A stretch of DNA of 64,000 nt from an uncultured Acidobacteriota bacterium. GTDB lineage: Bacteria > Acidobacteriota > Blastocatellia > RBC074. Shown one piece after another: positions 31,801-61,311 of this stretch. Below the pieces are notes generated by a model. It did not search any database. It saw only the letters and a program-made list of their open reading frames with translations, and was not told the origin of the DNA. Where the stretch lies: positions 64,001-128,000 of the forward strand of contig CAWCKY010000004.1 of assembly GCA_963796275.1 (NCBI GenBank). The letters run 5' to 3'. A program made the translations under genes and the position numbers. Position 1 is the stretch's first letter; the number at the start of each line of letters is the position of its first letter.

Positions 31801-34800
31801 ACCGGAAAAGGAAATTTCACCAACCGGTGCATACAAATATCACGTCTATGACGATTCCCAATTGTCCGTTGTTGATCAGACATACGAAGCGGGCGAGGAC
31901 GGCTCCAACTGGTCCTCGCGCAACGACAAATTCCTCGATGGGCGCGGGCGGGTGCGCATCCAGGACGCCTACGGCAAGGATGATGTGCAGGATCGGGTGG
32001 AGACTATTTACGACCAACTCGGAAGAGTCTGGAAGCAGAGTAGGCCTTACCGCTTTGACGAAGAGACACCACAAGAGACGCCCCAATGGAGCATCGTGAC
32101 TTATGATTTTCTTGATCGTGCTGTGCAAACCACCGCACCCGACGGCACCAGCATCGTGACCAGACAGTACAACCAGGCTCCGGACCCGTCAGGATCATCA
32201 GGCCAGCCAGGGCAGACGATTCGGGTAACGGATCCGTGGGGGCGACAGCGATGGGCACGCTCTGACGCCCTCGGCCGCATGGTCGAGGTTGGCGAACCAA
32301 ACCCCGACGGCAATGGTACACTTGCAACCGGCGCGCTGTTCACAAGCTATAGCTATGATGCCCTCGATCGACTGACACAGGTATCTCAGGGATCTCAGAC
32401 TCGGACGTTCAAATACGATTCTCTCGGGCGGATGACTCATCAGAAGCTAGCCGAACGAGCTGGAACACTCAATGACGCAGGAGATTATGTTGAGACTGGC
32501 ACGTGGAGCGATGTCTTCAGCTACGACAAGCGCTCGAACCTGACTCAGAGGGTGGATGCCCGCGGCGTCAAGACGATTTTCAAGTACAAAGACGAGGAGG
32601 ACATTGAGGATCCACTCAACCGGCTGCTGGCTGTGCATTATGACAAGAGCGGAGTGCCAGCCAGTCTAGCGGTCAATATTCCGGATGCATCGGACGTGAG
32701 TTATGTCTATATGACCACCGATGATAAGACGCGGCTGAAGAATGTAAATGTTGCTTCGGAAATGGGCGACGAGGAGTTCAACTATGACAACGAGGGGAGG
32801 TTGAGCCAGGTCACGCAAACCTTCACCGGGCGCGAGAGCTATCCACTGGTGACGAACTATCTGTGGGACACGCTCAACCGTCTCAAAGAGAAGACCTATC
32901 CAATGCAGCACGGGGCCGGTGATATCCGCAAGAAAGTCGAGCAGACTTTTGACAAAGCGAGTCGGCCCGATAGCCTGAAGTTCGGCGGCGTGACCTTTGC
33001 CTCAGACCCGGTCTACAACGCAGCGAGCCAGGTGAACGAATTGGATGTCGGCAGCCAGATCAAGGAAAGCTACGGCTACGATCCGAAGACAGGGCTGCTC
33101 ACATCTCAGTCGGTAGATCGCGGGACTACTGTTATGCTCAAGCTGTCATACATCTACACACTCGTCTTTGATCCGACCAACAGCCTGGCGAAGACAGGGC
33201 AAGTGGTCTCTATCACCGACGTGCAGAACAGCACGCGCAACCGAGCTTTCGAGTATGACAAAGTTGGAAGACTGAAGAAGGTCAAGAATAAGATGAACGA
33301 TCCGACCTGGTATCAGACATACACATATGACCGTTGGGGCAACCGGACGAACGTGGCGAAGACAGGGAATGCGCCGCAGATTCCGCTAGACGGATTGGCG
33401 AGCCTGAGCTACGACGCGACCAACAACCGGATGACAAGTGCGGGGTTCGCGTATGATCCCGCGGGAAATCAGACAAGAGCGGTTATCAACGATAGCGGGG
33501 TGCAACATCAGTATCGCTACGACGAGGCTGGCAGACTCGCTCAGGTGATCGATGGGAGCGGTACGACTGTGCTTGCGACCTACAGTTACGGGGCGAGCAA
33601 TCAGAGGCTGATGAGCGTCGAGAGCGGCGTGACCAAGTATTTCGGCTGGGATGGAGGCCGAATCGAGACCGAGTATGAGGGGTCCGGGACGAGCGGATTG
33701 CTTTGGAAGACTAGCTACGTCTATCTGGGCGGGCGGCTGCTGGCGACGACCAGTGGAAGCAGTGGGACGGAGACGCGGTTCCATCATCCAGACCGGTTGG
33801 GAACAAGACTGGTGACCGATGCGTCTACAGGAGAGGAAGTGACCAGGCAGTTAGTCATGCCGTTCGGGACGATGCAGCCGTATGGAGCGGTTGGCGGAGA
33901 CAACTCGTACCAGAGCCCGACCAAGAGCAATCCATCGCAGAAGAGGTTCACGAGTTACGACCGGAGCGATTCGACTGGACTGGATTATGCGGTGAATCGT
34001 TTCTATAGTTCACAGCAGGGGCGGTTCACGCAGGTCGATCCGATAGGAATGAGTGGGGCGAGTCTGAGCAACCCGCAGAGTTTGAATATGTATGCGTACT
34101 GCGGGAATGATCCGATCAATCTTACAGATCCTGATGGATTGTTCTTTGGAAAGCTGTTTAAGTGGATCGCAAAGATATTCAAATGGATTGCCATTGCAGC
34201 GGTTGTAGCGATCGCCGTTCTAACTGTCGTGCCTGCAGCTTGGGCGGGTACAGTGATGGCCAAAATCGGTATCTGGGCGGCAAAGCATCAGATACTTGCC
34301 TCACTATTGGGGCTTCATACTCCTCAATTTGCAATAGTCAATCTGGCTTCTACAGCGGGGGCAACTGCGGCGGGATTCTGGATTCTCGCTGGGGTCGGGG
34401 CAGTAAATAGTTTTCTACAAGCTGTTGGCAGTGGTAAGAAAGAAAAACTCAGCAAGGGAGACCAAGAAAAATACGATGAGGCAAGAGAAGAGGCTCAGGA
34501 CTTATCTAAAGATTGCAAGACATTCCTTGGTAACGCTTTGGGTAAGATGAACCTTAAAACCGATGACTTGGTTAATGCTATAAAGAAGCAGTTACCGTTT
34601 AGTAAGAATTCAACCATCAATACTGTTACTGCCGGGGTGGTGCCTAGTGGTTCAACCAACCCAGTAATTGCCTCAGTAGCCAAGCTTTCAGTGAAGGAGT
34701 TTTTTGACAAAACAAACCCCGCAGCAGCAACAGGTTTTTTTCAAAATAGCACACTATATGATGTTTATTTTGATTCAGGCTACATTAGCTCACGAAGGAT

Positions 34801-34942
34801 TATTCACGAGGCTTTACACTCCATTACCAAATTAAATGACGCAGACCTTGCTGTGAAGCTAGGTAGAAGCAGTCAAGAAAGTTTGCAGGGAAGTGTATGG
34901 ATAAATGATAGATTGTTTAAGTGGGGCTGCGGCTCAGACTGA
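28814..34942 (+). CDS. Rhs/YD-repeat polymorphic toxin with HExxH tip
   Basis: AGGAGG RBS, hydrophobic N-terminus, Ig-like segment, YD repeats, HPDRLGTR, DYAVNRFY, YAYCGNDPINLTDPDG, hydrophobic region, then IIHEALH. Confidence 0.93.
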   Translation: MSPLLQACFLFFVCLTYSSFFAIRTACAAVQACLSHWLYAFLPRVSLTGSRFGPSVLQRFLCVMLIVVMSGQSVLASPQIAFSVFNTVSPAAINSGQNVYFWWHSSGWAAWSERYVRKHFPFLHSSKQHERNWDGTGAPAQSMPEPMPQETQDERNARVVRLEIHPKEISVRPDEPVIFSAIGFDGNNSPVGGLRFNWSSEEEMSGERVKVMEMGKFAASKKGSYKIRASMNGRAVETKVTVKGDRFAPWEQPIGTRTVSSRDLPPAPRSSSPLPKTKERIAKNALDRLATRFASAGTKVMPAILQAGDIYGWNSSNYMTADDPGKQRGEPAGHTPDGGAGNANFEFATPVLALDGRGLDINLGLSYNSRIWHKANSEITFDIDRDWPAPGWSLGFGKIVSMGLGNGFMMIEADGTRHPYTGTISYSQFFHGCTCKTSDGSFIDYTVADNTPGGSTHAYAYAHFPNGTQILYEAPGANAIYPTWIGDSNGNKILISYRNNQGPQINTITDTLGRVIRFYYDSNNLLVAITGPGFNGTTRTLVRLIYEWKNLVNLGSNYGFAGLTPRVRNNVIPVIKGIYYPGTNTGYWFGESDSYSAYGMLAKVIEQRGMSFSAAPLPADPQQPADPGTITPGTMTRQMVYDYPMVASSLSSEPTYQNMTETWANMDVAPAVTHYLVQENASPRRIEITRPDGVKTVTLSHNAPGQFKDGLIYQDETYSPQATLLGRSFVNWEQGSCPPSGQSPGLYEYCAPRPSRIEITDERGQKTGKEFSYGSHFNQVTETREYGYGYSFGGTNTLLRKTRKEYLNDANYIDFAPSALEGIHIFNLVTVSEVFAGDGVTRLARTEYSYDQFRGAAGLKATPGITTSGYDARYNPHGNPFYVFFKFDNRGNVTTIKRYGNAVTLDEDTAVIEVRHYDITGNVVKIDNSCCEQTTINYTLNTQYAWPESQTRGSETDSSKQNTTSATYDFNTGLVKTGTDANGRVSQNTYYPDSLRPEKEISPTGAYKYHVYDDSQLSVVDQTYEAGEDGSNWSSRNDKFLDGRGRVRIQDAYGKDDVQDRVETIYDQLGRVWKQSRPYRFDEETPQETPQWSIVTYDFLDRAVQTTAPDGTSIVTRQYNQAPDPSGSSGQPGQTIRVTDPWGRQRWARSDALGRMVEVGEPNPDGNGTLATGALFTSYSYDALDRLTQVSQGSQTRTFKYDSLGRMTHQKLAERAGTLNDAGDYVETGTWSDVFSYDKRSNLTQRVDARGVKTIFKYKDEEDIEDPLNRLLAVHYDKSGVPASLAVNIPDASDVSYVYMTTDDKTRLKNVNVASEMGDEEFNYDNEGRLSQVTQTFTGRESYPLVTNYLWDTLNRLKEKTYPMQHGAGDIRKKVEQTFDKASRPDSLKFGGVTFASDPVYNAASQVNELDVGSQIKESYGYDPKTGLLTSQSVDRGTTVMLKLSYIYTLVFDPTNSLAKTGQVVSITDVQNSTRNRAFEYDKVGRLKKVKNKMNDPTWYQTYTYDRWGNRTNVAKTGNAPQIPLDGLASLSYDATNNRMTSAGFAYDPAGNQTRAVINDSGVQHQYRYDEAGRLAQVIDGSGTTVLATYSYGASNQRLMSVESGVTKYFGWDGGRIETEYEGSGTSGLLWKTSYVYLGGRLLATTSGSSGTETRFHHPDRLGTRLVTDASTGEEVTRQLVMPFGTMQPYGAVGGDNSYQSPTKSNPSQKRFTSYDRSDSTGLDYAVNRFYSSQQGRFTQVDPIGMSGASLSNPQSLNMYAYCGNDPINLTDPDGLFFGKLFKWIAKIFKWIAIAAVVAIAVLTVVPAAWAGTVMAKIGIWAAKHQILASLLGLHTPQFAIVNLASTAGATAAGFWILAGVGAVNSFLQAVGSGKKEKLSKGDQEKYDEAREEAQDLSKDCKTFLGNALGKMNLKTDDLVNAIKKQLPFSKNSTINTVTAGVVPSGSTNPVIASVAKLSVKEFFDKTNPAAATGFFQNSTLYDVYFDSGYISSRRIIHEALHSITKLNDADLAVKLGRSSQESLQGSVWINDRLFKWGCGSD

Positions 34943-36772: not shown

Positions 36773-37794
36773 CGCGCACCTCCTCCCGAAAGCGAGGTAA
36801 ATGTCTCTTGCACGAGAGACATCATACTCCCTTTGTCAAATTGGGCGATGCTGGCGAGATGAGCATAAGAGGGTAAGAGGGAGTGGGGCCATCGCAGGCC
36901 TGGCAATGTAGAAGAACGCAATAATCTTTCTGCACTATGATTAGTAAACGAATTATCCTAAGCGTGTGGTTATTCATCAGCGCACGATCACCCCGGCCGT
37001 GTGGTCGCCATTGACGACGGCGATACAATCATCTTACTCGATTCCACCAGGTGTAGTATCTATTGGAATAGTTCCATATGTTGACAAGAGCATGGCTCTG
37101 CGATATAACCTCGGGCCAATTAGCAGTGTATACCCTAATGGCTGAGGACGCTGCTGAATTTAGGGCGCGAAAGCGCCCTATACTCATTTCAGATTCGAAT
37201 CACTATATTCTTCGGACAAGGAGAGGCGCGCCGATATTGGACCGGGACTTCCGACTCGTTCGTGGCCGAGCTCACGGCGTGCGATCAGGTCCTGGCCGAG
37301 TTGAAGATAAATGAAAAAGAAGGACGAAAGACAGCACTCGTTCCAGCCATACATCGCTGCCCCGCGCTTTGGCCACGCGAACTATATGGCATAAATTAAC
37401 ATCGTTGCCATGGGGGTCTACTTTGGCATGCGATGGCGACGGCGCAAGCCTTTTATAACCTTGCCGGACATCAGTGGCAGGGCTTCCCGTAATCACTTAT
37501 TGAAGTTGCCGAGGCTCAATCTCAAAGCCTCAGCTCATCTAGCACCTTCATAGAAACACACCTCTTATACAAGGACGTAAGACAGAGAATTTTATTTGCA
37601 ACATAACCGAGTTATGCTAAAGGTAGGATAGCCACGAGAATTTATTCCGAAAACCATACGCCATGTGGAACTCGTGAATCATATAGTCGGACAGCCATGC
37701 CAATAGATCATATCAGTCTTCATGCAGCCGATTACTAAATCAAAGCAGTTATTATTACGACTTTCTCGCGGCGACCTATAAAGGCGCGGGGTAA

Positions 37795-38445
37795 GTGTTA
37801 TCACGGGACGGGATTGGCGAGCGGGATTTAGGAGTGTGTGTGCCCCGTAAACACAATATAGAGAGTGAGGCCAACGCCACGACGGTCACTGATAAAGGCC
37901 TGATTCTGCGCGTGAGCCATGGCGACGCAAGGGCTTTCGAAACGCTGGTCGATCTCTACCAGAAGCAGGCGTTGCGAATGGCGCAGCGATGTATCGGGCA
38001 ACATGCTGAGGCCGAAGACCTGGTCCAAGAAGCTTTCCTGCAAGTCCACCGGCGCGCTTACCTGTACAACCCTGAGATCGCCTCTTTTAAAACCTGGTTC
38101 TTCTCGATTCTCACCAATCTCTGCCGCAATGCTGTCAGGAGAAACAGGAATCGTACGTTCATCGAACTGTTAAAAGATGCGCGCGCAATTGACGATCTGG
38201 AGGGAGAGCTTGCGCACGAAGAGCGGCGAACTGTCATTGCCGCAGCCATGGCCAAACTGCCGCCCAATCAGCGATTGGCTTTGACCCTGTGCTATGAGGA
38301 AGAGTGCAGTTACGCCGAAACGGCGGCGGAACTGGGCCTTTCGGTCAAGGCCGTCGGGTCGCTGTTGGTGCGCGCGAAGCGGAGGCTGCGGGGGGAATTG
38401 ACAGGGTTGAGAAAAAATACTTTCAACGGAGCGAAGCTTTTTTGA
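37795..38445 (+). CDS. ECF RNA polymerase sigma factor
   Basis: GDARAFETLV, AEDLVQEAFL, FKTW, LPPNQR..SYAETAAELGLSVKAV.SLL.RA. Confidence 0.92.
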   Translation: MLSRDGIGERDLGVCVPRKHNIESEANATTVTDKGLILRVSHGDARAFETLVDLYQKQALRMAQRCIGQHAEAEDLVQEAFLQVHRRAYLYNPEIASFKTWFFSILTNLCRNAVRRNRNRTFIELLKDARAIDDLEGELAHEERRTVIAAAMAKLPPNQRLALTLCYEEECSYAETAAELGLSVKAVGSLLVRAKRRLRGELTGLRKNTFNGAKLF

Positions 38446-38541
38446 GTTTGGTGTGTATTACGAGGTGAGGAAAACTAGGAGACTATTTGGTCAATTAATG
38501 GCCATTTATTCTTCGTTAATATAAAGTCACGGAGGATTGAA

Positions 38542-38841
38542 ATGAAAAAGTATAGACTAACAATAGTATTGCTACTTCTCGTCATAACGGCATCAATCAC
38601 GCCATATGGCGGAGTTACGGGCCGCGAGGTAACATTGCCGACAACTAACTTTGTGGAAAACCCCCATAACGCCCCGCCGTGCGAACCTGCCGCGCAAGGA
38701 TGCACGCTACAGGAGGCGTGTACAAACCAACGGAATCCGGCGGTTTGTTGCGAACGGCTATGCACCTACATATGCGAGGACGGATCAGTGACGCTAACGC
38801 GGCAGATTTCAAACACGGGCCCGTGCAAAGCCCAACCATGA
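38542..38841 (+). CDS. Small secreted cysteine-rich protein
   Basis: GGAGG RBS, Sec signal, 8 Cys in the C-terminal ~50 aa. Confidence 0.65.
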   Translation: MKKYRLTIVLLLLVITASITPYGGVTGREVTLPTTNFVENPHNAPPCEPAAQGCTLQEACTNQRNPAVCCERLCTYICEDGSVTLTRQISNTGPCKAQP

Positions 38842-38899
38842 GAGGTGGTAGATAGTCACCCCCACCACAGTACGCGGCGGCGCAATGATTGTTCCAGCA

Positions 38900-39410
38900 T
38901 CGTAATTCATGCCGTCGGACATGGCTGGCGTAAACGATCTCCCCGAAGCGATCGCGATGTGGACGCTTATACGCGCTGCCGCGCGCAACCTCGCCGATAT
39001 GGATTTGAAAGGCCAACTGGCTTACGTGCGGCGAGTCGAGGACCAGCAGCAGACGACCATCAACTGGCTCAACACGCGGATCAGATCGTGCTGGAGACGA
39101 CCATCGCTTATGAGCAAAGTGGCGATCGATCTGACGGCCTATCTGGCGCGACATGAGCCGGATAAATACGTCAAGGATGTTTTTGACTTCGGCCTCCTGG
39201 AAGATTTCGATCACCTCTACCGCTATAGCCAGTTCCTTGATCTGGTCGCGGGCAAGGACCCGAACGAAATCCTACAGGGGAAGACCGACGTCTTCCCGAG
39301 GCGCCCGACGCAGGATAATCACAACGATCCGCTGCTGCGGCTGCGCAAACATTACGAGAAGAACCAGGCCAGTCCGGTATCGAAGGCGCACATCCTGAAT
39401 CTTCCCTTCC
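38900..39410 (+). pseudogene. Ferritin-like protein remnant
   Basis: Pieces in two frames: DVDAYTRCR, RRVEDQQQ..INWL, VLETTIAYEQ, DFGLLEDFDHLYRY. Confidence 0.65.
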
Positions 39411-39519
39411 GCCGAAACGGAGTAAGTAGGGAGTACATTCCCAGGCTTGATTTAAAGATTTAAAACGGTACTCGGCTTACTTATTGTTGGCACTCTGAAG
39501 TTACCGCGACAACGCATCC

Positions 39520-39566
39520 ACAACAAACAGAAAGGCATTCGGGGCGACTGCTTTTCTGTTTGTTGT
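39520..39566. repeat. 18-bp-arm inverted repeat upstream of the redoxin gene
   Basis: ACAACAAACAGAAAGGCA / TGCTTTTCTGTTTGTTGT, with one G-T pair. Confidence 0.8.
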
Positions 39567-39602
39567 AACAAAGCCTGAGACTACGACAAGGAGGAACCTG
39601 AT

Positions 39603-40166
39603 ATGACTCGACTGGAAAAAGCGACAAATGTAGCCATCATCGTGGCCTGTACCGTCTTGGTCGGGAACCTGGCCTGGAATTACTACCTCAGCTCAAGACC
39701 CAATCCGAGACTCGCGCCTGAGATCGCGAAAGGGGCCGTGGTCAAGCTGCCCGGCGCGGCCCCCACCAGCCCACAACCTACGCTGGTCCTGGTGCTCTCG
39801 AAGAACTGCCATTTCTGCCAGGAGAGCGTCGGGTTCTATCAAAAGCTGACGGCCTTCAAGAATTCCTCCCCGCAAGGGCTGCGGCTGGTGGCGGTACTGC
39901 CCCAGAGCAAGGAGGAGGCCGAAAGCTACCTCAAAGAACAGAGGATCGGGGTGGACGAGGTGATCTCGATGGATGTGTCGAAGCTGGGAGTGAGAGGTAC
40001 GCCGACTCTGTTGCTGCTGGACGGGAAGCATAAGCTGGAGGAGTTGTGGGCCGGAAAGCTCGATCCCACCCAGGAGTCACAAATGATGGAAAGGCTCAAG
40101 AAGGCTTGCGGCGGCTGCGCGATCCCAGCCGCTATCCTCCTTCCCTCTTTCAGCCCGGGCTGGTGA
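39603..40166 (+). CDS. Membrane-anchored thioredoxin-like (TlpA/redoxin) protein
   Basis: AGGAGG RBS, N-terminal TM, CHFC, GTPTLLLLD. Confidence 0.85.
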   Translation: MTRLEKATNVAIIVACTVLVGNLAWNYYLSSRPNPRLAPEIAKGAVVKLPGAAPTSPQPTLVLVLSKNCHFCQESVGFYQKLTAFKNSSPQGLRLVAVLPQSKEEAESYLKEQRIGVDEVISMDVSKLGVRGTPTLLLLDGKHKLEELWAGKLDPTQESQMMERLKKACGGCAIPAAILLPSFSPGW

Positions 40167-40185
40167 AGGCAGCGCTGTGGTTTGA

Positions 40186-40330
40186 TCAAATAGCTAAGGC
40201 TTCTTCTATATATCGTCTGAGTTTTTCTTTTATGCGATATATTCTTATTCTCACCGTGTTGATACTGAGGCCATATTTTTCGGCTATGGCTTTTCTGTCT
40301 TTGATTCCTGCATTCTCCCAATCATCGACC
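40186..40330 (-). pseudogene. Sigma factor region-4 remnant
   Basis: RKAIAEKYGLSINTVRIRIYRIKEKLR HTH tail without an N-terminal part. Confidence 0.55.
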
Positions 40331-40455
40331 GGTGGATTGCGATCACGGTGTTGCTGATATTGGTGGCGCTCCTGGCGTATTTCATACTGCGCGCATGACA
40401 AAAGTAGCCCCGAGGTCGCGCTTCGGTCTGAATGCCTTTTACAGCTCCTAACATG

Positions 40456-41592
40456 TCAAGCGCCGCTAACCTGCCCCCGGCCAGGAAGCGTGAACCGGAA
40501 AGTTGAGCCAACGCCTTCCTTACTTTCCACAGTCACATTCCCGCCATGCGCCTCGACAAACGTCTTCACGATGGCAAGACCCAGGCCTGTTCCACCTTCC
40601 TTTTCCGGATCGGTTTCTAGTTTGTCGAAGATTATTTCGAGCCGGTCTTCAGGGATTCCAGCGCCATTGTCGCGGACCCAGCACTCGAGGCCGCCTTCCG
40701 CTCCGACTTCTCGCACCCCGATGACGACTTCGCCGCGCGGAGTATACTTAATCGCATTCGCGATCAAGTTCTGAAATACACGCTTCAGTAAACTCGCGTC
40801 CGCGTAAACGGTTAGATCCTCGGGGACCTCGTTGATAAGTTGCGTACTGGAGGTCCCAGCCACAGGATGCAGATCGTAGATAAGGGCCTCGACAAGCGGC
40901 CATAAATCGAACTCACGGCGCTCCAATTTGATGCCGGTCTCAGTTTGGATGTAATCGCTCTCTTTTAGGACCTTATCAACCAACGCTTGAAGACGCTGCA
41001 CGTTACGGTGGAGAGTCTTGAGCATCTGGGCCGTTTCAGCGCTGTCATTTTGCCCAGAGAACGGGGGTTGCAGAACATGCGCGGCAAGGGAGATAGCATT
41101 AAGCGGGCTGCGCAGATCGTGCGCCACAAATGCCAAATACTCTTCACGGCGCCGCTGCATTTCTAGTGCTTGCTGAGTGGAAAATGTCTGGACGGCCAAT
41201 CCGATCGCCTTATCCAGGACGCGATTCAAGATATGGAACGCCTTGCCATCCAGGCTGAGGCCATGGGTTTCGGCGAGATCGTAGATGCAGCCGCGAAGGA
41301 TGTTGTACTCTGCCACAACTTCGATGATGTCGAACCCATCTTGATACCGCTGCATGCCGTGGGCTGGCGAGCTGCCTTCCCGAATCTCTTCCGTGATCGT
41401 TTGATCAGACGCAGAGTGGAATGCGGCGGCCAATTCATCAAGGAGGGTGGGAACCTGATCGTTCAGCGTAGGTGTATCGAGATCCTTCGCTGATGGGAGT
41501 TGCCGCACTTGCTCCCTCCACTGAGAGAGCAAAGCATCGCGCTCATGCTCGATGAGTGTTGCCAGTTCGTTGAGATTCTGAATACTCATCAT
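40456..41592 (-). CDS. Cytoplasmic sensor histidine kinase (RsbRD-N-like + HisKA + HATPase)
   Basis: HGMQR..GF, AHDLRSPL, NLIANAIKY, DNGAGI, GTGLGL. Confidence 0.92.
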   Translation of the reverse strand: MMSIQNLNELATLIEHERDALLSQWREQVRQLPSAKDLDTPTLNDQVPTLLDELAAAFHSASDQTITEEIREGSSPAHGMQRYQDGFDIIEVVAEYNILRGCIYDLAETHGLSLDGKAFHILNRVLDKAIGLAVQTFSTQQALEMQRRREEYLAFVAHDLRSPLNAISLAAHVLQPPFSGQNDSAETAQMLKTLHRNVQRLQALVDKVLKESDYIQTETGIKLERREFDLWPLVEALIYDLHPVAGTSSTQLINEVPEDLTVYADASLLKRVFQNLIANAIKYTPRGEVVIGVREVGAEGGLECWVRDNGAGIPEDRLEIIFDKLETDPEKEGGTGLGLAIVKTFVEAHGGNVTVESKEGVGSTFRFTLPGRGQVSGA

Positions 41593-42406
41593 ACGTACCT
41601 AATTTCGAACTAAGTGCCATTAATATTGAATATATCATATAAAAAAATATTAAGATTGCCGTGACACCAAGCACTGCGCCACTCTCTATCAGCAGCCCGC
41701 TTTCGCAGAAGCAATCAGTGAGGGTGAAATCGAGAGGAATAGATATTCGCAGAAGCCCAGAGGAGTTGCTTACCATCTTCATAAACAAGATGGCTTCCCG
41801 CGGAGGGCGAGGAAGTGGCCTAGAGCTGCGGGAGTTTGCGAAAAGGCCTCTGGCTTGCCTACCTCGCGTAGCGCTGACCAGAATCTCATATACGATATCC
41901 GCCTGGTCGATGGCGATTCAAATCACGGTAAAAAAAAACCCCTTCTTTAACATACACTATATTCCCTTAGTCCCTTTTAGTTTTTTCATTTCCCCCTCCC
42001 CCCCCCCAACCTATCCCTAAATATATGGGCCCCCACGTCTCTATCCCTCTCTCCTTGTTTTAATTCCCCCCCCCCCCCCCCCCCTCCCCTCTTCGACCTC
42101 ATTTGCCAGACGGCACCGGGCTTGACCTCTTCTTCTGACGTCCGAGCTGCCGACGGATTGTGTTCGCGTATCGTATCGTAGTTCGACAGAACTAGGTGAT
42201 AGCCTTTTACTCCTATTTGCCCATTTTGCGCAACGACCGAGCGCAGTCACCCAAAAGGGCCCGGAGCGAAGCGAAGGACCCCGGAGCAAAGCGGAGGGGT
42301 TGACGGCGTGAGGAGCGGAGCACGATGCACATAAGAGAAAAAGGCGACTCTATTCGTTTCAATTGTCCTCTGCCTACTTGAAAATGCGTCACTGGCTGGT
42401 TTTTCG

Positions 42407-42976
42407 TTAGTTGATGAAACCAGGCTCTTCGGGACTCCGATTGTCCTGATCTGCCTCGACTACATCTTCATCCACTATGTCCGAGAAAGACATCGCAGCA
42501 TAATGGACCGTCATATAAATGAGACTTGCCCACAAAGTAGGCCGGATGCGGATATCTCCTGAAACAAGACTTTCCGCAAATGAGCGGCCGCTATCACTCA
42601 TGAAGTCTTCCAATAGCGATTCAATATTACAACTGCCTGATCCAACTCGGCACGCCGGGCATCGACCAAATGATCGAAGATTGTTTTGGTCATCATCACG
42701 CCAAGAGCGCCAGATACATTTCTCCTCCATCTTCTCGATCCGCTTCTGATGAAGTAGGACAAACAATTCCTGAACATATTCTCTGTGCCTGGCTGCAGAA
42801 TCTTTTTGATCTTCTTGGGATTTTTTTGCTTCCCCCCACTTTTCCCTTCTTTTGATTTCCAGAGACGAGATCATCCCCCGTCGACAGGCCTCATAGAACA
42901 GGTCATCATCTGATGCCTGTCTCAACGCGTCTTTAATTTGTTTGGGTGAGGGAGTGTCTCGTGGTCTTGCGGCCAT
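42407..42976 (-). CDS. Hypothetical protein (CxxC-containing)
   Basis: AAGGAG RBS inside the upstream gene, start 1 bp after its stop; CPACRVGSGSC. Confidence 0.6.
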   Translation of the reverse strand: MAARPRDTPSPKQIKDALRQASDDDLFYEACRRGMISSLEIKRREKWGEAKKSQEDQKDSAARHREYVQELFVLLHQKRIEKMEEKCIWRSWRDDDQNNLRSFGRCPACRVGSGSCNIESLLEDFMSDSGRSFAESLVSGDIRIRPTLWASLIYMTVHYAAMSFSDIVDEDVVEADQDNRSPEEPGFIN

Positions 42977-42977
42977 A

Positions 42978-43721
42978 TTACCCTCTCCTTCTGCCCATGC
43001 CGCTCAGAGTATCCCTGATCTCTCGGCTGTATCCGTTCTTGATATGTGCGATGTAGTCTTGTAGCGGCAGGTGTTTATATGTCGAACGTGTTTGAGCCTC
43101 TCTAATGCCTACCCTAAACGTATCCCGTAATCGAGCTGCATTCTGTGGATCGTTGAGGGATTCATCGAGTCGCAGCCAAAGACGGGCCTGATCGTCGGCC
43201 GCATCCGGATCGTCGTGAAGTGCATCCGGACTCAAAAATATAAGCCAGTCCCGCCCATCAAACAGAGAATCTTTCCATGCCGTAATCTCGATAGGCGTTG
43301 CCTCTCTGTGATAGAGCAATTCAATTTCATCATTCACAAAATAGATATCTAGGTCCCCCTCGATATATGCCATGTATTCTTCTATGGTCACTCGATTGAA
43401 CTTCGAACGCTTGTGAGCTTCCCTGATGCCGGCGCGAAACGTACTCCGTAACCGCCTGCCGCTCGACCGCTGGTCGAGAGTTTCGTCAAGCCGCAGCCAG
43501 AGGCGAGCCTGCGCGTCAGCCGCCTCCGGATCGCCATTAAGTCCGGAGGCTTTCAGGAAAAGTTCCCAATCTCGATCATCGAGGAGCGACTCACCATCGA
43601 CCGCAGCTCCATGCTTCGCGTTCGTCTGTGAGGGGGCACACGTATGTCTATTAGGGCTGTTCGCTCTTTTCATTGTTCGTATGCTCGGACTACCTGCGTA
43701 AATTCTCTCGCTACTAACCAC
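42978..43721 (-). CDS. Hypothetical protein with a tandem-duplicated ~105-aa domain
   Basis: D.RDW..FL..DP.AAD.QARLWLRLDE.L..RLR.TFR.GIREA..RS occurs twice. Confidence 0.7.
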   Translation of the reverse strand: MVSSERIYAGSPSIRTMKRANSPNRHTCAPSQTNAKHGAAVDGESLLDDRDWELFLKASGLNGDPEAADAQARLWLRLDETLDQRSSGRRLRSTFRAGIREAHKRSKFNRVTIEEYMAYIEGDLDIYFVNDEIELLYHREATPIEITAWKDSLFDGRDWLIFLSPDALHDDPDAADDQARLWLRLDESLNDPQNAARLRDTFRVGIREAQTRSTYKHLPLQDYIAHIKNGYSREIRDTLSGMGRRRG

Positions 43722-43876
43722 TAATCCCTACGAGAGCCTCTCGGCCACGGATTTGTCGCAGGGATTGGGAAGACGCTTTATCGGCTGGTGGATGTTTGTA
43801 CTCTGTGCTCCTGGCTCGGCCGAGACTTTTTATCCCCGATAAATCGCGCATAAGTGATTGAAGCTTTGTGCGTATT

Positions 43877-44943
43877 TTAAAAACGGCCCGATACGCGGCT
43901 CTCGAATCTCTGGAGCTTCGATTGCATCGTTGTGCGAGGCATCCCCAAAAGGAGAGCTGCTTTTCGTTTGTTTCCGCGTGTCATCTTGAGCGCCCCCATG
44001 ACGTCGAGATATTCCCGCATCTCATCCATTTCGGCGTTAGCGCCGCCGCTGCGGTCCTCCGCAATTGCGCCGCTCCGCCCAAACATCTCCCACACAAGAG
44101 CTTCCGTGATGACCCCTCGGTCCTCTTCGCTTTTATAGCCAGCCACAGAATTTTGTTTTCGAACTCGCGGAAATTGCCCGGCCATCTGTAGCCCCAGCTG
44201 CACAGCGTGTCGAGCGCAGCCGGGGCGAACCTGACCTCATACTGTAATCTCGCACGCGCTCCCACTTTCTTAAGCGTGGGCTCGATCAACAGTGGAATAT
44301 CTTCGAGATGCTCGCGCAGCGGTGGCGTCTTGATTGGATAAGGGTTGAGACGATTATATAAATCCTCCCGGAAAGAACCTTCCGCGACCTTTGCTTGCAG
44401 ATCGCGATGCGTCGCGGCAATTATTCGCACGTCAACTTTAATGTTGCTGGTCGGTGTTCCCCCGACGCGTTTGATGTCGCCTTCCTGCAGCGCACGCAAA
44501 AGTTTGACCTGGCTTGCGAGCGACATGTCGCCTATTTCATCAAGAAAAAGCGTTCCGCCATGGGCGGCCTCGAAGTGCCCTATTTTGCGCTGGTAGGCGC
44601 CTGTGAACGACCCTTTCTCGTGTCCGAATAATTCCGTTTCGATCAACGTATCCGCGAGTCCGCCGCAGTTCACTACGATAAGCGGCTTATTGGATCGACT
44701 ACTAAGGTGGTGAACTCGCCTCGCTACCAATTCCTTACCCGTCCCCGATTCCCCAAGTATGAGAACCGTTGCGAGCGTATCCGCGACATCGTCGATCTCC
44801 TTTTTTAATTGATGGATTAGGAGCGAATCGCCCCAAATGTCGTCTGCGCCGGCGCTGTTGTGCCCTTCGCTGTTTTTTCGAGGATCAAGCGCCGTAAGCG
44901 CAACTTCATGATTGTCTGAGAATCTGCCATTGAATCGGGACAT
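43877..44943 (-). CDS. Sigma54-dependent activator (AAA+ and Fis HTH) without sensory domain; frameshift near 44125
   Basis: GESGTGKE, ELFGHEKGSFTGA, FLDEIG, FREDLYNRL, WPGNFRE; the HTH GNKRKAALLLGMPRTTM lies in the adjacent frame. Confidence 0.9.
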
Positions 44944-45023
44944 TATGTGCCTCTTCGGACCTTGCCATCTTTCCTTTTGGGCCGATCTTTGTAAAATAGA
45001 CGCGCAAAATCCGAGCGTAAAAA

Positions 45024-45172
45024 TAGTACAGATAGTTACTTTAGGTGGTGAGGGGTGGCGTCCACCAAAAATGGAAACGATGCAGTCTTATCGGCGCTAT
45101 GGTGGCAGAAGGTCAAAGGATAGCGCCTTCCAGACGGCGAGTATTGCACCTAAATAGTAGCTATTGTTACTA
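45024..45172. promoter_or_regulatory. Inverted pair of AGTA-N8-TACT operator-like sites in the divergent intergenic region
   Basis: TAGTACAGATAGTTACTTTAGGTG (45024-45047) vs CACCTAAATAGTAGCTATTGTTACTA (45147-45172). Confidence 0.55.
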
Positions 45173-45186
45173 AAAAAGACAAGACC

Positions 45187-45495
45187 ATGAGTGACGAGCA
45201 GTTCAGACCCAGGCGGCTGGCGGAGAAGCTCCTTGCGATTCGCATGGGGCTCGATCTTTCGCAAAATGAAATGTTGCATGTCCTTGGATTGAAAGACGTA
45301 TACGATCGGGCGTTCGTCTCGTTTTGGGAGACAGATAAGCGGCAACCTCCCTTGGGCGTGGTGCTGAGATATGCTCGCGCCTATGGCGTTTCTACCGATT
45401 TTTTACTCGATGATAAGTTCAATTTGCCGCCGCCTCAGATTCAACTCAACCGTCCTTCGCGGAAGCGGAGACGTCGTTCGAGCAATCCTTCCTGA
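45187..45495 (+). CDS. XRE-family transcriptional regulator
   Basis: LAEKLLAIR..LDLSQNEM..VSFWETDKRQPPL..VSTDFLL. Confidence 0.88.
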   Translation: MSDEQFRPRRLAEKLLAIRMGLDLSQNEMLHVLGLKDVYDRAFVSFWETDKRQPPLGVVLRYARAYGVSTDFLLDDKFNLPPPQIQLNRPSRKRRRRSSNPS

Positions 45496-45712
45496 CAAGA
45501 AAGCAGCTATCGAGATATATCGAGATCATATTCAATGCCTCGGCTGCGTTCGCCGCTGACTCTCTCTCTCATTTGCTGGTATTCATTCTTCGGCTCCCGC
45601 TCGATCCGTTTCTCTTGGGCGATCTCCTTCTGCCGTGACCGATTCATTAGCTCGGCAATCTTCTCGATAGAGTTCCCAACGTCTTCGACTGCGGCCACTT
45701 CCCTGCACTGCG

Positions 45713-45814
45713 TGTACTGCGCCACGATTGCTCAGACCTTTGAGCAAGGTCAGGCCTTCGTGAAGTAGGCCTGACCTCTCGTTAAATCGCTACGCGTTGG
45801 AATATCCACAGACG
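45713..45814 (+). repeat. 102-bp direct repeat, copy 1
   Basis: Matches 51821-51922 with 3 mismatches by eye; contains hairpin AGGTCAGGCCT-N9-AGGCCTGACCT. Confidence 0.93.
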
Positions 45815-46148: not shown

Positions 46149-48562
46149 TTACGGCAGGCACTGCGGATCGCCCAGCAAATGGCTGAGAAAATGCAAGAGG
46201 CAAAATTGACTGCTTGAGGATCGACTGCCTGAGGATCGAATACCTGAAAAACTGGCGCAATTGGTTGAATCGAAGTTCGCGCCGCCGTTGGTGCAAGTTC
46301 CGTTATTAGAGCGCGGCACACAGACGGTGACGCTGCCTTGGCAGCTCCCCCCATTTCCATCGCTCGCCGTGAAGAAGATGGTGTAGACCCGGCCATTGCC
46401 CTGACCGCTGCGCTCGGCGCGGATCTGAGCGGTGGAAGTTCCGATTCCCTGGCCATCGGGACAGGTATGCCCGTCACCAGTGCCGTCGGTCGGCTCGTCC
46501 TGTTTGATCTGATCGATGGTGATGGTGACCGGATCGCCGTCGGGATCTGTCACGCCCTGGATGGTGACGTTGACGAACTGGTGATTGGGCGGCCAGATCT
46601 TGGAGATGCTGGGGGAGGCCCCGCTGCAATCGGGCGACTGATTAACCGCGACAAAGACATAGGCCGAGCCTTGATCGGCGCCAGCCGCGCCGTCATCCAA
46701 CTGCGCGGCGACCACGATCGTGTTGCCGCTGATCGCCAACGACTCGCCGAACTGGTCAAATGGCGCCGGGTCCGAGGCCTCAAGCTTCTGCTGCTGGCTC
46801 CAGACTCCAGCGCTGCGCACAAAGACATAGGCCGAGCCTTGATCGAGGCCTCCTGCGCCATTATCTGCCGGCGCGCTTATCACGACCGTCTCCCCATCGA
46901 TGTCCACCTTGAAGCCGAAATGGTCAGTTGCCCCCGGGTCCGAGGCCTCGAGCTTTTGCTGCTGGGTCCAGACTCCAGCCGCTGCGCACAAAGACATAGG
47001 CCGAGCCTGGATCGATGCCCGCTGCGCCATCATCAAACTGCGCGCCGACCACGAGCGTCTCACCGTCGATCGCCGCCGCGCCGCCGAACTGGTCATTTGC
47101 CGCCGCGTCCGAGGCCTCGAGCTTTTGCTGCTGGGTCCAGACTCCAGAGCTGCGCACAAAGACATAGGCCGAGCCTTGATTGCCGCCCGCTGCGCCATCA
47201 TGCATACGCGCGCCGACCACGACCGTTTCAGCGCTGATCGCCAACGCCTCGCCGAACCGGTCACCTGCCTCCGGGTCCGAGGCCAGGAGCTTCTGTTGCT
47301 GGCTCCAGACACCACCGCTGCGCACAAAGACATAGGCGGCGCCCTCGCTGCTGACCGCGACTGTCTCCCCACTGATCGCCACCCTGAGGCCGAACTGGTC
47401 ATTTGCCGCTGCGTCGGATGCCTGCAGCTTCTGCTGCTGGCTCCAGACTCCGCCGCTGCGCACAAAGACATAGGCCGAGCCTAGACTACCGCTAAAGAAA
47501 TCACCCGGCGTGCCGACCACGAGCGTCTCACCGTCGATCGCCACCCAGTGGCCGAACACGGCGCCTGCCGCCGGGTCCGAGGCCAGGAGCTTCTGTTGCT
47601 GGGTCCAAACTCCGCCGCTGCGCACAAAGACATAGACCGAGCCTTGATCGCCGCCCGCCGCGCCATCATCAAACTTATTGCCGATCACGACCGTGTCACC
47701 ACTGATCGCCACCTCGTTGGCGAACCGGTCACCTGCCGCCGGGTCCGAGGGCTCCAGCTTTTGCTGTTGCGTGAAGGTCGGGTCGATCGTCACTGGATAG
47801 ATCGCTCCTTCATCCGCCACCTCCAGCTTCACCTCATCTCCGGACGAGCTTCATCCGCGCCTCGAGCCCTCGCCCAGTCGCGTCGAACGCATGCAGCTTC
47901 TCATAGCGCAGACCTGCTCCAGCTCCCTTACCATTGAGCTGGATCGCCTGCCCACTCTCCAACAGCCGCGTTTTCAAATCTCCACTCAGCTTCAGCCACA
48001 GATTCAACTTCTCTCCGGCCTTTCTCTTTCCAGGAGCTTGCACGATCGTGAAGCCCTGCTCCAATCCGCTCGCACGGTTCACATACCATTCGCCGAGCGT
48101 AGCGCCGTCTTGCGCTCGCCTCTCGTATTCGATCCGCTCCCCACTGGCTTTGAGGCCGCCTGAGGTCACAGCCTTCTTCCGCTCACCATAGCCGTATGCG
48201 GTCAGCTTCATTCCCAGCCGCCACTCGCTCCCCGCCAGGCTCGATCCTCTCACCTCTACGCCCTCTCGCGTAAAGACAGCTCGGTAGCCCTGCTTCGGAT
48301 TGCCTGCCTCATAGATACCCTCTCTCCTCTCCGCGATCTCATAGCGCGCCGCCGTCACCGCGGCTGAAAGCGAGTTGTAGAGTCCCGTTTGTTCCAGATG
48401 CCGGATCGCCGCTGGTCCGCGCAGGGCCGGCATCGGCGGAGCGGCTTTATTCGTCGAATCTGCTCCGGCGGTCCGGATCGCCGTCAGTCCGGCGTAGCAG
48501 CCGATCAGCGCCATCGCTACGATGATCAGAAAACGCGCAAGGCGATTTCGTTGCTTTCTCAT
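46149..48562 (-). pseudogene. FG-GAP 7-bladed propeller protein, copy 2 (frameshifts near 47845 and 46977)
   Basis: Pieces of ORFs 47834-48877, 46924-47832 and 46149-47471 join into a paralog of 48760-51171; ATG at 48562 after AAGGAG. Confidence 0.88.
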
Positions 48563-48759
48563 ACTTGTCTCCTTAATTGATGTTTGAAGTTGACTATTGA
48601 TTGACGGTCGAAGATGCCCGTCGTGATGAAACGATAGATGGCTTAACAGTTCGGTCTGGCGCCGCCGAAAGCGGTAAGGGCGGATGGAAAGGAGCCGCCA
48701 GACTCCCTTCCACCACCCAATTGAAGTGAACGATCTTGCCATCGCCCGAACTGTCCTGA

Positions 48760-51171
48760 TCACTGCAGGCATAGCGGGTCGCCCAGCAGGTGCAGCAGCG
48801 AATCCAAGAGACAAAAAGAACTGCCAGAAAAACCGGTGCAATTCGTGGAATCGAAGTTCGCGCCGCCGTTGGTGCAAGTTCCGTTATTAGAGCGCGGCAC
48901 ACAGACGGTGACGCTGCCCTGGCAGCTCCCCCCATTTCCATCGCTGGCGGTGAAGAAGATGGTGTAGACCCGGCCATTGCCCTGACCGCTGCGCTCGGCG
49001 CGGATCTGAGCGGTGGAGCTTCCGATTCCCTGGCCATCGGGACAGGTATGGCCGTCACCAGTGCCGTCGGTCGGCTCGTCCTGTTTGATCTGATCGATGG
49101 TGATGGTGACGGGATCGCCGTCGGGGTCGGTCACTCCCTGGATGGTGACGTTGACGAACTGGTGATTGGGCGGCCAGATCTTGGAGACGCTGGGGAACGC
49201 CCCGCTGCAATCGGGTGGCTGATTGGCTGGAGCAAACACATAGGCCGAGCCTTGCTCGCTGCCCGCTGCGCCATCATCACCCCTCGCGCCGACCACGATC
49301 GCCTCCCCGCTGATCCCTACCATGTCGCCGAAGAAGTCAAGTTCCGCCGCGTCCGAGGCCTCGAGCTTCTGCTGCTGGGTCCAGACTCCGCCGCTGCGCA
49401 CAAAGACATAGGCTGAGCCTTGAGCGCTGCCTGCCGCGCCGTCATCTTGCGACGCGCCGACCACGACCGTCTCCCCACTGATCCCCACCGAACTGCCTAA
49501 GTTGTCTAATGCCGCGGCGTCCGAGGCTAGGAGCTTCTGCTGCTGGGTCCAGACTCCACCGCTGCGCACAAAGACATAGGCTGAACCTTGATCGCTGCCC
49601 GCTGTCCCATCATCAAACAGTGCGCCGATCACAAGCGTCTCCCCGCTGATCGCCACCGACCAGCCGAACTGGTCACCTGTGTCCGATGCCTCGAGCTTCT
49701 GCTGCTGGGTCCAGACTCCAGCGCTGCGTACAAAGACATAGGCCGAGCCTTGATCGCTGCCCGCTGTCCCATCATCACGCGGCGCGCCAATCACGACCGT
49801 CTCCCCGCTGACCGCCACTGAGAAGCCGAAGAAATCGACTGCCCCCGCGTCGGAGGCCTCGAGCTTCTGCTGCTGAGTCCAGACCCCACCGCTGCGTACA
49901 AAGACATAGGCCGAGCCTTGAGCGCCACCTGCTGTGCCGTCATCTTGCGACGCGCCGACCACGACCGTCTCCCCGCTGATACCCATCGAGTCGCCCAAGT
50001 TGTCAAATGCCGCGGCGTCCGAGGCCTCGAGCTTCTGTTGCTGGCTCCAGACTCCGCCGCTGCGCACAAAGACATAGGCCGAGCCTTGATCGGAACCCGC
50101 CGCGCCATCATCAAACCGCGCACCGACCACGACCGCCTCACCGCTGATCGCCACCGAGAAGCCGAACTGGTCACCTGCTCCCGCGTCCGAGGCCAGGAGC
50201 TTTTGCTGCTGGCTCCAGACCACGCCGCTGCGCACAAAGACATAGGCCGAACCTTGATCGCTGCCCGCTGCGCCGTCATCATCCCGCGCGCCGACCACGA
50301 CCGTCTCCCCGCTGATCGCCACCGAGTTGCCGAAGCTGTCACCTGTCCCCGGGTCCGAGGGCTCCAGCTTCTGCTGTTGCGTGAAGGTCGGATCGATCGT
50401 CACTGGATAGATCGCTCCTTCGTCCGCCACCTCCAGCTTCACCTCATCTCCGGCCAGCTTCATCCGCGCCTCTAGCTCTCGCCCAATCGCGTCGAACGCA
50501 TGCAGCTTCTCATAGCGCAACCCTGCTCCTGCTCCCCTTCCGTTGAGCTGGATCGCCTGCCCACTCTCCAACAGCCGAGCCTTCAAATCTCCACTCAGCT
50601 TTAGCCACAGATTCAACTTCTCTCCGGCTCCTCTCTTTCCAGGAGCTTGCGCGATCGTGAAGCCTTGCTCCAATCCGCTCGCACGGTTCACATACCATTC
50701 GCCGAGCGTAGCGCCGTCTCCCGCTCGCCTCTCGTATTCGATCCGCTCCCCACTGGCTTTGAGGCCGCCTGAGGTCACAGCCTTCTTCCGCTCACCATAG
50801 CCGTATGCGGTCAGCTTCATTCCCAGCCGCCACTCGCTCCCCGCCAGGCTCGATCCTCTCACCTCTACGCCCTCTCGCGTAAAGACAGCTCGGTAGCCCT
50901 GCTTCGGATTGCCTGCCTCATAGATACCCTCTCTCCTCTCCGCGATCTCATAGCGCGCCGCCGTCAGTGCGGCCGAAAGCGAGTTGTAGAGTCCCGTTTG
51001 TTCCAGATGCCGGATCGCCGCTGGTCCGCGCAGGGCCGGCATCGGCGGGGCGGCTTTATTCGTCGAATCTGCTCCGGCGGTCCGGATCGCCGTCAGTCCG
51101 GCGTAGCAGCCGATCAGCGCCATCGCTACGATGATCAGAAAACGCGCAAGGCGATTTCGTTGCTCCCTCAT
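48760..51171 (-). CDS. Secreted FG-GAP (integrin-alpha-like) 7-bladed propeller protein, copy 1
   Basis: Signal peptide, N-domain (EWYVN..GLEQGF), seven QQQKL.ASD..FG.SVAISG..VVGA..GSAYVF repeats, C-domain WPPNH..DPDGD..RAER..GRVYTI. Confidence 0.92.
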   Translation of the reverse strand: MREQRNRLARFLIIVAMALIGCYAGLTAIRTAGADSTNKAAPPMPALRGPAAIRHLEQTGLYNSLSAALTAARYEIAERREGIYEAGNPKQGYRAVFTREGVEVRGSSLAGSEWRLGMKLTAYGYGERKKAVTSGGLKASGERIEYERRAGDGATLGEWYVNRASGLEQGFTIAQAPGKRGAGEKLNLWLKLSGDLKARLLESGQAIQLNGRGAGAGLRYEKLHAFDAIGRELEARMKLAGDEVKLEVADEGAIYPVTIDPTFTQQQKLEPSDPGTGDSFGNSVAISGETVVVGARDDDGAAGSDQGSAYVFVRSGVVWSQQQKLLASDAGAGDQFGFSVAISGEAVVVGARFDDGAAGSDQGSAYVFVRSGGVWSQQQKLEASDAAAFDNLGDSMGISGETVVVGASQDDGTAGGAQGSAYVFVRSGGVWTQQQKLEASDAGAVDFFGFSVAVSGETVVIGAPRDDGTAGSDQGSAYVFVRSAGVWTQQQKLEASDTGDQFGWSVAISGETLVIGALFDDGTAGSDQGSAYVFVRSGGVWTQQQKLLASDAAALDNLGSSVGISGETVVVGASQDDGAAGSAQGSAYVFVRSGGVWTQQQKLEASDAAELDFFGDMVGISGEAIVVGARGDDGAAGSEQGSAYVFAPANQPPDCSGAFPSVSKIWPPNHQFVNVTIQGVTDPDGDPVTITIDQIKQDEPTDGTGDGHTCPDGQGIGSSTAQIRAERSGQGNGRVYTIFFTASDGNGGSCQGSVTVCVPRSNNGTCTNGGANFDSTNCTGFSGSSFCLLDSLLHLLGDPLCLQ

Positions 51172-51820: not shown

Positions 51821-51922
51821 TGTACTGCGCCACGATTGCCCAGACCTTTGAGCAAGGTCAGGCCTTCGTGAAGTAGGCCTGACCTTTCGTCAAATCGCTA
51901 CGCGTTGGAATATCCACAGACG
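51821..51922 (+). repeat. 102-bp direct repeat, copy 2
   Basis: Matches 45713-45814. Confidence 0.93.
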
Positions 51923-55062: not shown

Positions 55063-55615
55063 TCAGACAGGAAACGCCAGATGTGTGAGCCGGGCGATCA
55101 GGGCAGCCAGATAACTCCGCAATTCTTCAGTTGAGACGCCGCCTGGTGGGACCAAGTCGTCGCCCAGTTCAATCTGGTTAAGAACCCATGCCAATTGGGC
55201 AGATGTCAATCCACTGTCCTTCAAGGCAGCCGCTGCCAGCGCTTCCTCTATCCTGTAACCGGCCAGTTCGAGTGCACGAGTATCCACCAAGTCACGTACC
55301 TCCGACCGTGATAACAGCGTACAAAGCTTATTGGCCAAAATCTCCTCCGGCGGATCCACACGGATGCCGCTTATGACAAGCTTTTCAGGCAGGCGCTGTG
55401 TGACCCGCTCGCGTACCAGATCAACAACGACAGCTCCCGCACCACGCCGCAACAAGACGCGACGGAAATCCGGGGACGTTTGAACCGGTTCGAGTGTCGC
55501 ACCCATTTCGCGCGCAACCTCGACTACAACCGCGTATCCGTCTGCCATCGTATCCTCAAGTGTAAATAGATACTTAGATCGTGCGTCTCCCGATGCCCCC
55601 AGATGAAAACCACCG
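55063..55615 (-). pseudogene. AbiEii/AbiGii-like nucleotidyltransferase, 5' truncated
   Basis: Degenerate GFHLG(HRETHDL)..LFT; EEILANKLCTLLSRSEVRDLVD. Confidence 0.75.
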
Positions 55616-55688
55616 TTCGGACATCGCCCCGTCGGAGATGGCGTCAGGATAGGTAACGATGGGATGATCGATGGAGCGACGATAACAT

Positions 55689-61227: not shown

Positions 61228-61311
<84 letters not shown>

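Follow-up and report, generated by a model that had tools for sequence, protein, structure and literature searches.

In the present study, we analyzed a divergent gene pair of an uncultured Acidobacteriota bacterium (assembly GCA_963796275.1, contig CAWCKY010000004.1, positions 64,001 to 128,000). This stretch of 64,000 nucleotides is called the window, and coordinates refer to it unless another contig is named. Between positions 42,407 and 45,495 of the window, a gene for a small regulator of the XRE family faces a gene for a sigma-54 activator (bacterial enhancer-binding protein, bEBP) that lacks a sensor domain, and two further genes, p247 and p189, follow the activator. With moderate confidence, we read the locus as an accessory regulatory cassette in the chromosome of an acidobacterium of Pyrinomonadaceae type, in which an XRE repressor gates the operon of the sensor-less bEBP with p247 and p189. 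The cassette is not a prophage switch; it sits in an island rich in insertion sequences (IS) and RHS genes, and part of the cassette is segmentally duplicated and in decay. No description of an XRE gene divergently paired with a sensor-less bEBP was found in full-text searches of the literature.

Results

The order of genes on the minus strand is activator, Fis-type helix-turn-helix (HTH) segment in another frame, p247 and p189, and the XRE gene is transcribed divergently from the plus strand. The original prediction, made from the letters of the window and a list of their open reading frames (ORFs), had placed the XRE gene opposite a sigma-54 activator across a spacer of 243 bp, and both the ORF coordinates and the Pfam matches agree with it. 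The XRE gene (45187-45495, plus strand) encodes 102 aa. The protein matches Pfam HTH_3 (2.5e-06, 27.9 bits; cut-off 23), with HTH_31 as its sole other Pfam match, and has in Pfam neither a C-terminal peptidase or sensor domain nor an S24/cI-type cleavage domain. Its NCBIfam matches to RstR (7.5e-06) and DicA are weak and each below its own cut-off, and the similarity to PHROG regulator families is also weak. It belongs to a Pyrinomonadaceae/Blastocatellia subfamily, of which relatives with 40-55% identity, often multicopy, occur in 16 of the 86 other family genomes.

The activator ORF (43981-44943, minus strand) cannot be extended upstream, and 35-37 residues stand ahead of the AAA+ domain. 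The N-terminus, the AAA+ sigma-54 domain and the lid occupy 44117-44943 (minus strand), with Pfam Sigma54_activat (PF00158) on residues 38-204 (9.9e-67, 224 bits; cut-off 20.2) and AAA_lid_14 (PF25601) on residues 210-275 (9.5e-10); the NCBIfam matches are all below equivalog cut-offs. The Walker A motif is GESGTGKE and the sigma-54 loop is GSFTGA, within GHEKGSFTGA, whose positions F, T, G and A are kept across an alignment of 22 rows. The lead of about 35 residues and the GSFTGA loop had both been predicted, and the loop is read directly in the translation. The description of the activator as sensor-less also holds, since the AAA+ profile begins at residue 38 and the spacer has no remnant of a receiver or sensor domain (97 N-terminal queries, best E 0.13). 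The best non-self match among 5.8 billion proteins is 57% identical, and most of the top matches are proteins of 440-512 aa with FleQ or receiver N-domains. The host has a single rpoN match (PF04552, 4.5e-58; genome G000, C3:1419712-1420188).

The C-terminal linker and the Fis-type HTH of the activator (43877-44116, minus strand) are read in a frame shifted by -1 against that of the AAA+ part, and they are 97% identical to an in-frame copy on contig C1 of the same genome. Pfam HTH_8 (4.2e-08) falls in ORF 43877-44203 (minus strand). Because HTH_8 sits in a different frame from AAA+, the activator gene is frameshifted. The C-terminal HTH and the AAA+ domain are thus not on the same polypeptide in the window copy; they are in frame in the C1 paralog and in two contigs of a soil metagenome (X2, described below).

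The divergent control region extends over 243 bp (44944-45186) between the activator and XRE starts. It holds two operator-like sites, each with AGTA-N8-TACT inside. Site 1 (45021-45040, motif at 45025-45040) covers the positions from 78 to 97 bp ahead of the start codon of the activator, and site 2 (45152-45171, motif at 45156-45171) ends 16 bp before the ATG of the XRE gene. The two motifs are the cores of a 20-nt repeat, identical at 16 of 20 positions, with a distance of 131 bp. The original prediction had noted two such sites in the spacer, and they are exactly the two that the 64-kb window contains; 0.21 were expected, and two were reached by 1 of 100 shuffles. Across the whole genome (9,456,497 bp) there are 31 AGTA-N8-TACT sites, among which the spacer pair is the only one less than 400 bp apart, and the 20-mer has no match with fewer than two mismatches elsewhere in the 9.46 Mb. 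The operator-like sites are not a product of chance. Confinement of the motif to a single spacer is a better fit to a local repressor than to an enhancer of a regulon. A sigma-54 consensus at 9/12 or better was not found in the spacer on either strand, and Rfam gave nothing at E <=0.1 over 36-52 kb.

The pairing recurs in relatives. Among the XRE-homolog loci in family genomes, 6 of 38 have a bEBP within 1.5 kb, where about 0.5 would be expected (169 bEBP matches in 38.3 Mb of five related genomes, about 1 per 227 kb); this is about ten times chance. The two genes are divergent at four of the six loci (L149, from the same genus, L028, L045 and L172), which come from four related genomes; L045 and L172 are near-copies and are to be counted once. 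The bEBPs of L045 and L028 have no Pfam N-domain, and those of L149 and L172 have short N-termini by ORF inspection. Divergent pairs, which the original prediction suggested searching for, exist in these relatives; an operator motif in common, which it suggested searching for as well, was not seen in the spacers of the other XRE/bEBP loci. Matches to -24/-12 promoters at these loci reach only 9/12-10/12 and are inconsistently placed. The cargo behind the activator varies by locus: in the window it is p247 and p189, at other loci a TonB-C-like protein or small membrane proteins. A second XRE-bEBP pair in the genome of the window itself (C3, about 6.4-7.9 kb) is on the same strand, and its bEBP is frameshifted and broken at Walker A (L044, 2854-3853). 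As a separate observation, the spacer between the XRE gene and the short bEBP in genome G055 (L045, 2251-2337) contains a run of the 7-nt unit GATATTC, reported as five 31-nt copies in 14-nt steps.

A profile search of genome contigs with a 6-row XRE alignment gave 537 relatives among 602 candidate stretches, and 79 loci were kept, all titled Pyrinomonadaceae, Blastocatellia or Acidobacteriota. The XRE/bEBP pairing is limited to a sub-branch of the XRE subfamily. In the XRE tree, which like the AAA+ tree is weakly resolved, the window XRE falls in a cluster of six rows (SH-aLRT 81), of which four are paired with a bEBP. When the five paired bEBPs were constrained to one clade, the likelihood was above that of the free quick tree (+14.3 lnL) with a p-AU (approximately unbiased test) of 0.81, so that a single origin is not rejected. 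The concern raised in the original prediction, that the activator might be a truncated form of a sensor-bearing protein without an XRE partner, is partly justified: most of the nearest homologs, none more than 58% identical, have an N-domain of the FleQ or receiver kind, yet a single clade of five XRE-paired short activators stands unrejected.

The left part of the locus belongs to a duplicated segment (37381-44464), which matches C1:38250-44912 of the genome at 95-98% identity (blastn). The segment includes genes for an extracytoplasmic function (ECF) sigma factor, an unknown protein of 184 aa, a thioredoxin-like protein and a histidine kinase, followed by p189, p247 and the 3' half of the activator. 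A copy on contig C3 corresponds to 42272-44297 of the window at 93% identity. The boundary of the C1 duplication falls inside the AAA+ domain of the activator, and since both copy boundaries are inside genes, segmental duplication and not transposition is indicated. The C1 copy is without the 5' half of the activator and without the XRE gene; the C3 copy has a split p247 and a rearrangement in the region of the activator.

Three-way alignment of the copies assigned three lesions to the window copy only, namely the loss of 1 base at about 44117, of 26 at about 42709 and of 1 at about 42638. The frameshift site of the activator (44113-44117, minus strand) is a G run of four residues, against five in the C1 paralog, which reads in frame across the break (...KAKRTEGVITEALVWEMF...; ...RTEGVITEAL). 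The frameshift that had been placed at 44125 lies close to that estimate, as a 1-nt deletion in the G run at about 44117. A programmed -1 frameshift at GAG GGG T was considered and rejected, as the slippery heptamer is absent and the paralog and relatives are plainly in frame; the change is treated as a lesion.

Contigs of two soil metagenome runs (X1 and X2, the latter from another study) were compared with the window over 42300-45600. The relatives in X2 are 85-95% alike to the window, and the run has no cover at 42300-42965, where p189 lies. Two X2 contigs have an extra base at 44116, by which the frame and the residues TEGVIT are restored. One X2 contig of 513 nt (about 95% identical; 26 differences, 2 gaps) spans 44899-45411; it begins at the start of the activator gene, crosses the spacer and reaches into the XRE gene. 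Since it bridges the same layout, the arrangement of activator, spacer and XRE is not an assembly accident. Together with the in-frame contigs, it indicates that an XRE-facing short activator, intact at the break, exists in a related organism.

Of the two genes downstream, p247 (42978-43721, minus strand) encodes a rare orphan protein with a likely start at Met17 (43673), which gives 231 aa. A helical domain of about 80 aa is present twice in tandem by duplication, and its N-terminal domain and C-terminal domain region share 50-58% identity, which agrees with the duplicated-domain protein of the original prediction. Neither p247 nor p189 has a family match in Pfam, NCBIfam, PHROG or PADLOC, and by the same four collections no PspA-family or other known inhibitor stands beside the activator. 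Among 5.8 billion proteins, p247 has seven relatives: the C1 copy, five Joint Genome Institute (JGI) metagenome proteins with 79-84% identity and one at 56%. A profile search of 1.84 billion representatives gave nine matches, some of which are single-domain proteins of 102-146 aa that align to one repeat. Two of the relatives (P0122 and P0123) sit on JGI contigs of 29.7 and 39.5 kb; metagenome scans with p247 and with its alignment returned no locus. In 85 of the 86 other family genomes p247 was not found, and the same-genus genome G060 gave two weak matches (better E 3.8e-4). The AF2 model of p247 is helical (mean pLDDT 68.8, pTM 0.68), and with it Foldseek gave nothing at E <=0.001 in the PDB and Atlas no usable match. 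A FliS-like helical bundle was considered and dropped, the best VIA-align Z of 5.1 being below chance level for helical models. The ratio of nonsynonymous to synonymous substitution rates (dN/dS) between the p247 paralogs is 0.3-0.6. A complex prediction of the activator AAA+ domain with p247 scored 0.00, which is evidence neither for nor against an interaction.

The p189 ORF (42407-42976, minus strand) has its ATG one base after the p247 stop and is found only in this genome; no relatives of p189 or of its C1 form, p198, were found outside it. The CxxC motif for which this protein had been singled out does not survive comparison with the paralogs. The CPAC stretch (about 42650-42661) lies between the 26-nt deletion (about 42709) and the 1-nt deletion (about 42638), and the 71 nt between them (42638-42709) are out of frame with the paralogs, where C1 and C3 read AHT(V/A)PEFAALGV. 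Because this stretch is out of frame against two mutually conserved paralogs, the CxxC of p189 is an artefact of decay. The dN/dS between the C1 and C3 copies is 0.78, the AF2 model of p198 is poor (pLDDT 47.1), and its Atlas scores of 0.83-0.87 toward small HTH proteins serve as a lead only. The p189/p198 gene may not be functional.

By Pfam, the window ORFs of the surrounding island include RHS proteins and IS605, IS21 and Tc3-type transposases, besides AbiEii, a helicase and a fragment of a group II intron maturase. One RHS-repeat protein is 2042 aa long (28814-34942); it and a second RHS fragment (19231-21249) stand among IS21, IS605 OrfB and a Tc3-type transposase remnant, and the maturase fragment lies at 17239-17631. 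The ORF of an AbiEii-like nucleotidyltransferase overlaps the end of a superfamily-1 helicase ORF of 1087 aa (55063-58952), and the two may form a defence-type pair. The gene of a large FG-GAP-repeat protein is present in two tandem copies (46149-51171), one intact with 803 aa and the other broken up into three ORFs. The FG-GAP pair is flanked by a 100-bp repeat of 97% identity (45713-45814 and 51821-51922), and contig C6 has further copies. Further genes split by frameshifts are those of an S41 peptidase (53427-54430) and IS21 istA (24004-25486); many pseudogenes in the islands of the genome or assembly indel errors are the two options for these multiple split genes.

Between p189 and the kinase gene there is an element of about 45 bp (42093-42198) that resembles repetitive extragenic palindromes or miniature inverted-repeat transposable elements, with copies of 90-95% on C1, C2, C4 and C6. 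A 60-bp leader in which TGGCAC is kept exactly is conserved before three paralogs of an RsbRD_N-HisKA kinase gene (window 41560-41660, C1:40780-40870, C7:406790-406880), and at the C7 copy the DNA upstream of the conserved leader is unrelated. A possible sigma-54 element before the histidine kinase gene (41604-41619; TGGCAC, then TCGA), kept in the three paralog leaders, was rejected as a promoter, as it has no GC at -12 and stands only 12-27 nt ahead of the ATG.

Discussion

The layout of the locus suggests how the cassette could work. Dimers of the XRE protein would bind both putative 20-nt operators, one beside each divergent start, and this binding would repress the XRE gene itself as well as the activator operon. 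The signal input, which elsewhere is taken by a sensor domain in cis, would here enter at the level of transcription, and the activator, once made, would be constitutively active with the single sigma-54 of the host. The core of the original prediction, a repressor-gated constitutive activator, is thus retained, as the activator is sensor-less, faces the XRE gene over a private pair of sites and belongs to a pairing that recurs; its framing as a phage or mobile-element device is not. The logic of the circuit is plausible, and it is met again in relatives.

Several results weigh against this account. No ortholog of the activator above 58% identity is present in the 5.8 billion proteins or in the five related genomes. 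A scan for -24/-12 promoters, proposed along with the original prediction, gave none at 10/12 or better within 36-52 kb; there are five matches of 9/12, none of which precedes a cassette gene, and the target may be located outside this stretch. Likewise, a sigma-70 consensus at 9/12 or better was not found in 43600-45800, spacer included. All copies in this genome are damaged, and the cassette may be non-functional here. The frameshift, whose verification in reads had been advised, is shared by an X1 contig (98.6% identical, depth 4); X1 may be the source sample of the genome, and the contig therefore supports a real lesion, and not an assembly error, only weakly, while the X2 contigs are in frame. 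The related genomes are not independent, so that kinship inflates any test across these loci. Among the 79 loci closest to the main XRE clade, four have a bEBP within 6 kb and none has one that is divergent and adjacent; at 20 of the 79 (L059-L137) a CheY-like receiver of about 125 aa stands alone and divergent beside the XRE gene, which makes it the most frequent neighbour and a further, unstudied pairing. Finally, the free quick AAA+ tree separates the window activator from the other four paired activators.

In an alternative view, a truncated and frameshifted activator pseudogene was rearranged beside an unrelated XRE gene and there is no circuit. The broken activator, the scrambled p189 and the damage to all three copies would fit such chance neighbours, as would the other split genes of the window (IS21 istA, the S41 peptidase and the FG-GAP genes), the N-terminal domains of the nearest activator homologs and the failure to find a target promoter within 36-52 kb. 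We regard this view as rather unlikely, since the same arrangement is seen in a relative of about 95% identity from another study with the activator in frame at the break, the operator-like pair, which has no equal in the genome, lies next to both starts, the association of XRE genes with short bEBPs exceeds chance about tenfold, and the spacer is free of any remnant of a lost sensor domain. A reversal of the wiring, in which the 20-nt repeats would be enhancer sites of the activator and the XRE gene its sigma-54-dependent target, has a published parallel in a module of a bEBP with RpoN3 that drives an XRE gene (PMC11999139), and bEBPs commonly bind paired sites upstream of a target. The absence of a GG-N10-GC element at 9/12 or better from either strand of the spacer speaks against the reversal. 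The TTGCA that fits best in the spacer, as judged by eye, is preceded by a GG that is nearer by two bases than it should be, and site 2, ending 16 bp before the XRE ATG, is too near for an enhancer. In the published module, moreover, AprX has a receiver domain and does not adjoin xrpA. We consider the reversed wiring very improbable.

A phage or mobile-element switch, in which induction would remove the XRE repressor and a constitutive activator would drive the genes of the element, was the form in which the circuit had originally been proposed. The divergent layout with two operator-like sites recalls such switches, the XRE protein is weakly similar to phage repressor families (RstR, 7.5e-06, under the cut-off; PHROG regulators), the activator AAA+ domain matches phrog_7998 (9.3e-48), and the region is rich in IS, RHS and AbiEii genes. 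Nevertheless, no integrase, terminase, capsid, tail or replication gene was found by Pfam among the window ORFs scanned (36 ORFs, and 15 window ORFs among the 21 proteins of another scan), and the contig has no att-like direct repeat of the tRNA-Leu at 61230-61311. By its distribution the XRE subfamily is chromosomal, with 2 viral loci, neither of them with a bEBP, against 537 genome relatives, and p247 has 0 loci on viral contigs. The activator gave 66 records in a phage collection by tblastn, all below 60% identity and many of them resembling host DNA that was filed as phage. The lack of an S24 cleavage domain in the XRE protein and the copy boundaries inside genes, which indicate segmental duplication, point the same way, and we hold the phage switch to be very improbable.

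The proposed repressor-gated cassette can be compared with known systems. PspF of Escherichia coli consists of AAA+ and a C-terminal HTH only, has no N-terminal sensor, and is held by the protein PspA. The window activator shares with it the lack of a sensor and an activity set from outside the protein, and TIGR02974 matches residues 38-265 (3.8e-71); the score of 240 bits, however, is far below the 443.55 of the equivalog cut-off, no PspA-family gene is present, as neither p247 nor p189 has a match in Pfam, and control here would be transcriptional, via the XRE protein. HrpR and HrpS of Pseudomonas syringae also lack a sensor; transcription determines how much of these bEBPs is made, and the adjacent small protein HrpV can inhibit them. 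They differ from the present case in that the two paralogs act together in a heterohexamer and belong to a type III secretion cluster, whereas here a single activator has an XRE partner and no secretion genes. In the lambda cI/Cro switch, a small HTH repressor acts on repeated palindromic operators in a short control region, from which transcription is divergent. The divergent layout, the repeated palindromic operator-like sites and the small HTH protein are found here too. In contrast to lambda, the small HTH protein is not partnered by another of its kind, there is neither an S24 autocleavage domain nor a prophage context, and two operator-like sites 131 bp apart take the place of three adjacent operators.

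The nearest published description is that of the XrpA-AprX-RpoN3 system of Cereibacter sphaeroides (PMC11999139). There, the bEBP AprX with RpoN3 drives the XRE gene xrpA, GSFTGA is accepted as a variant of GAFTGA, and AprX, which contains a receiver domain, is encoded apart from xrpA, upstream of which there is a sigma-54 promoter. The likeness is that an XRE regulator and a bEBP take part in one circuit. The differences are that the bEBP there activates the XRE gene, which is the opposite wiring, that AprX has a receiver, that the genes are apart and that a sigma-54 promoter is present, where none was found here.

On a broader and tentative reading, which we think doubtful in its full form, the Pyrinomonadaceae would have a class of sigma-54 activators, undescribed so far and of one origin, in which the sensor in cis was lost and gating was taken over by a dedicated XRE protein encoded back to back. 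The pair would be a portable two-gene "transcriptional sensor" before varying cargo, with p247 as a co-factor or first target.

Conclusion

The analysis also carries a caution, as the CxxC motif and the phage likeness, two striking features of the locus, dissolved once paralogs and context were examined. Sensor-less sigma-54 activators are constitutively active, and how each is kept silent is the key question about them. To our knowledge, the solutions described so far rely either on protein inhibitors (PspA, HrpV) or on regulatory cascades further upstream. If the proposed reading is true, a dedicated back-to-back XRE repressor would be a further and simpler solution to the silencing of such activators, in the form of a compact two-gene device, and the pairing would recur across genera of a poorly studied soil phylum.

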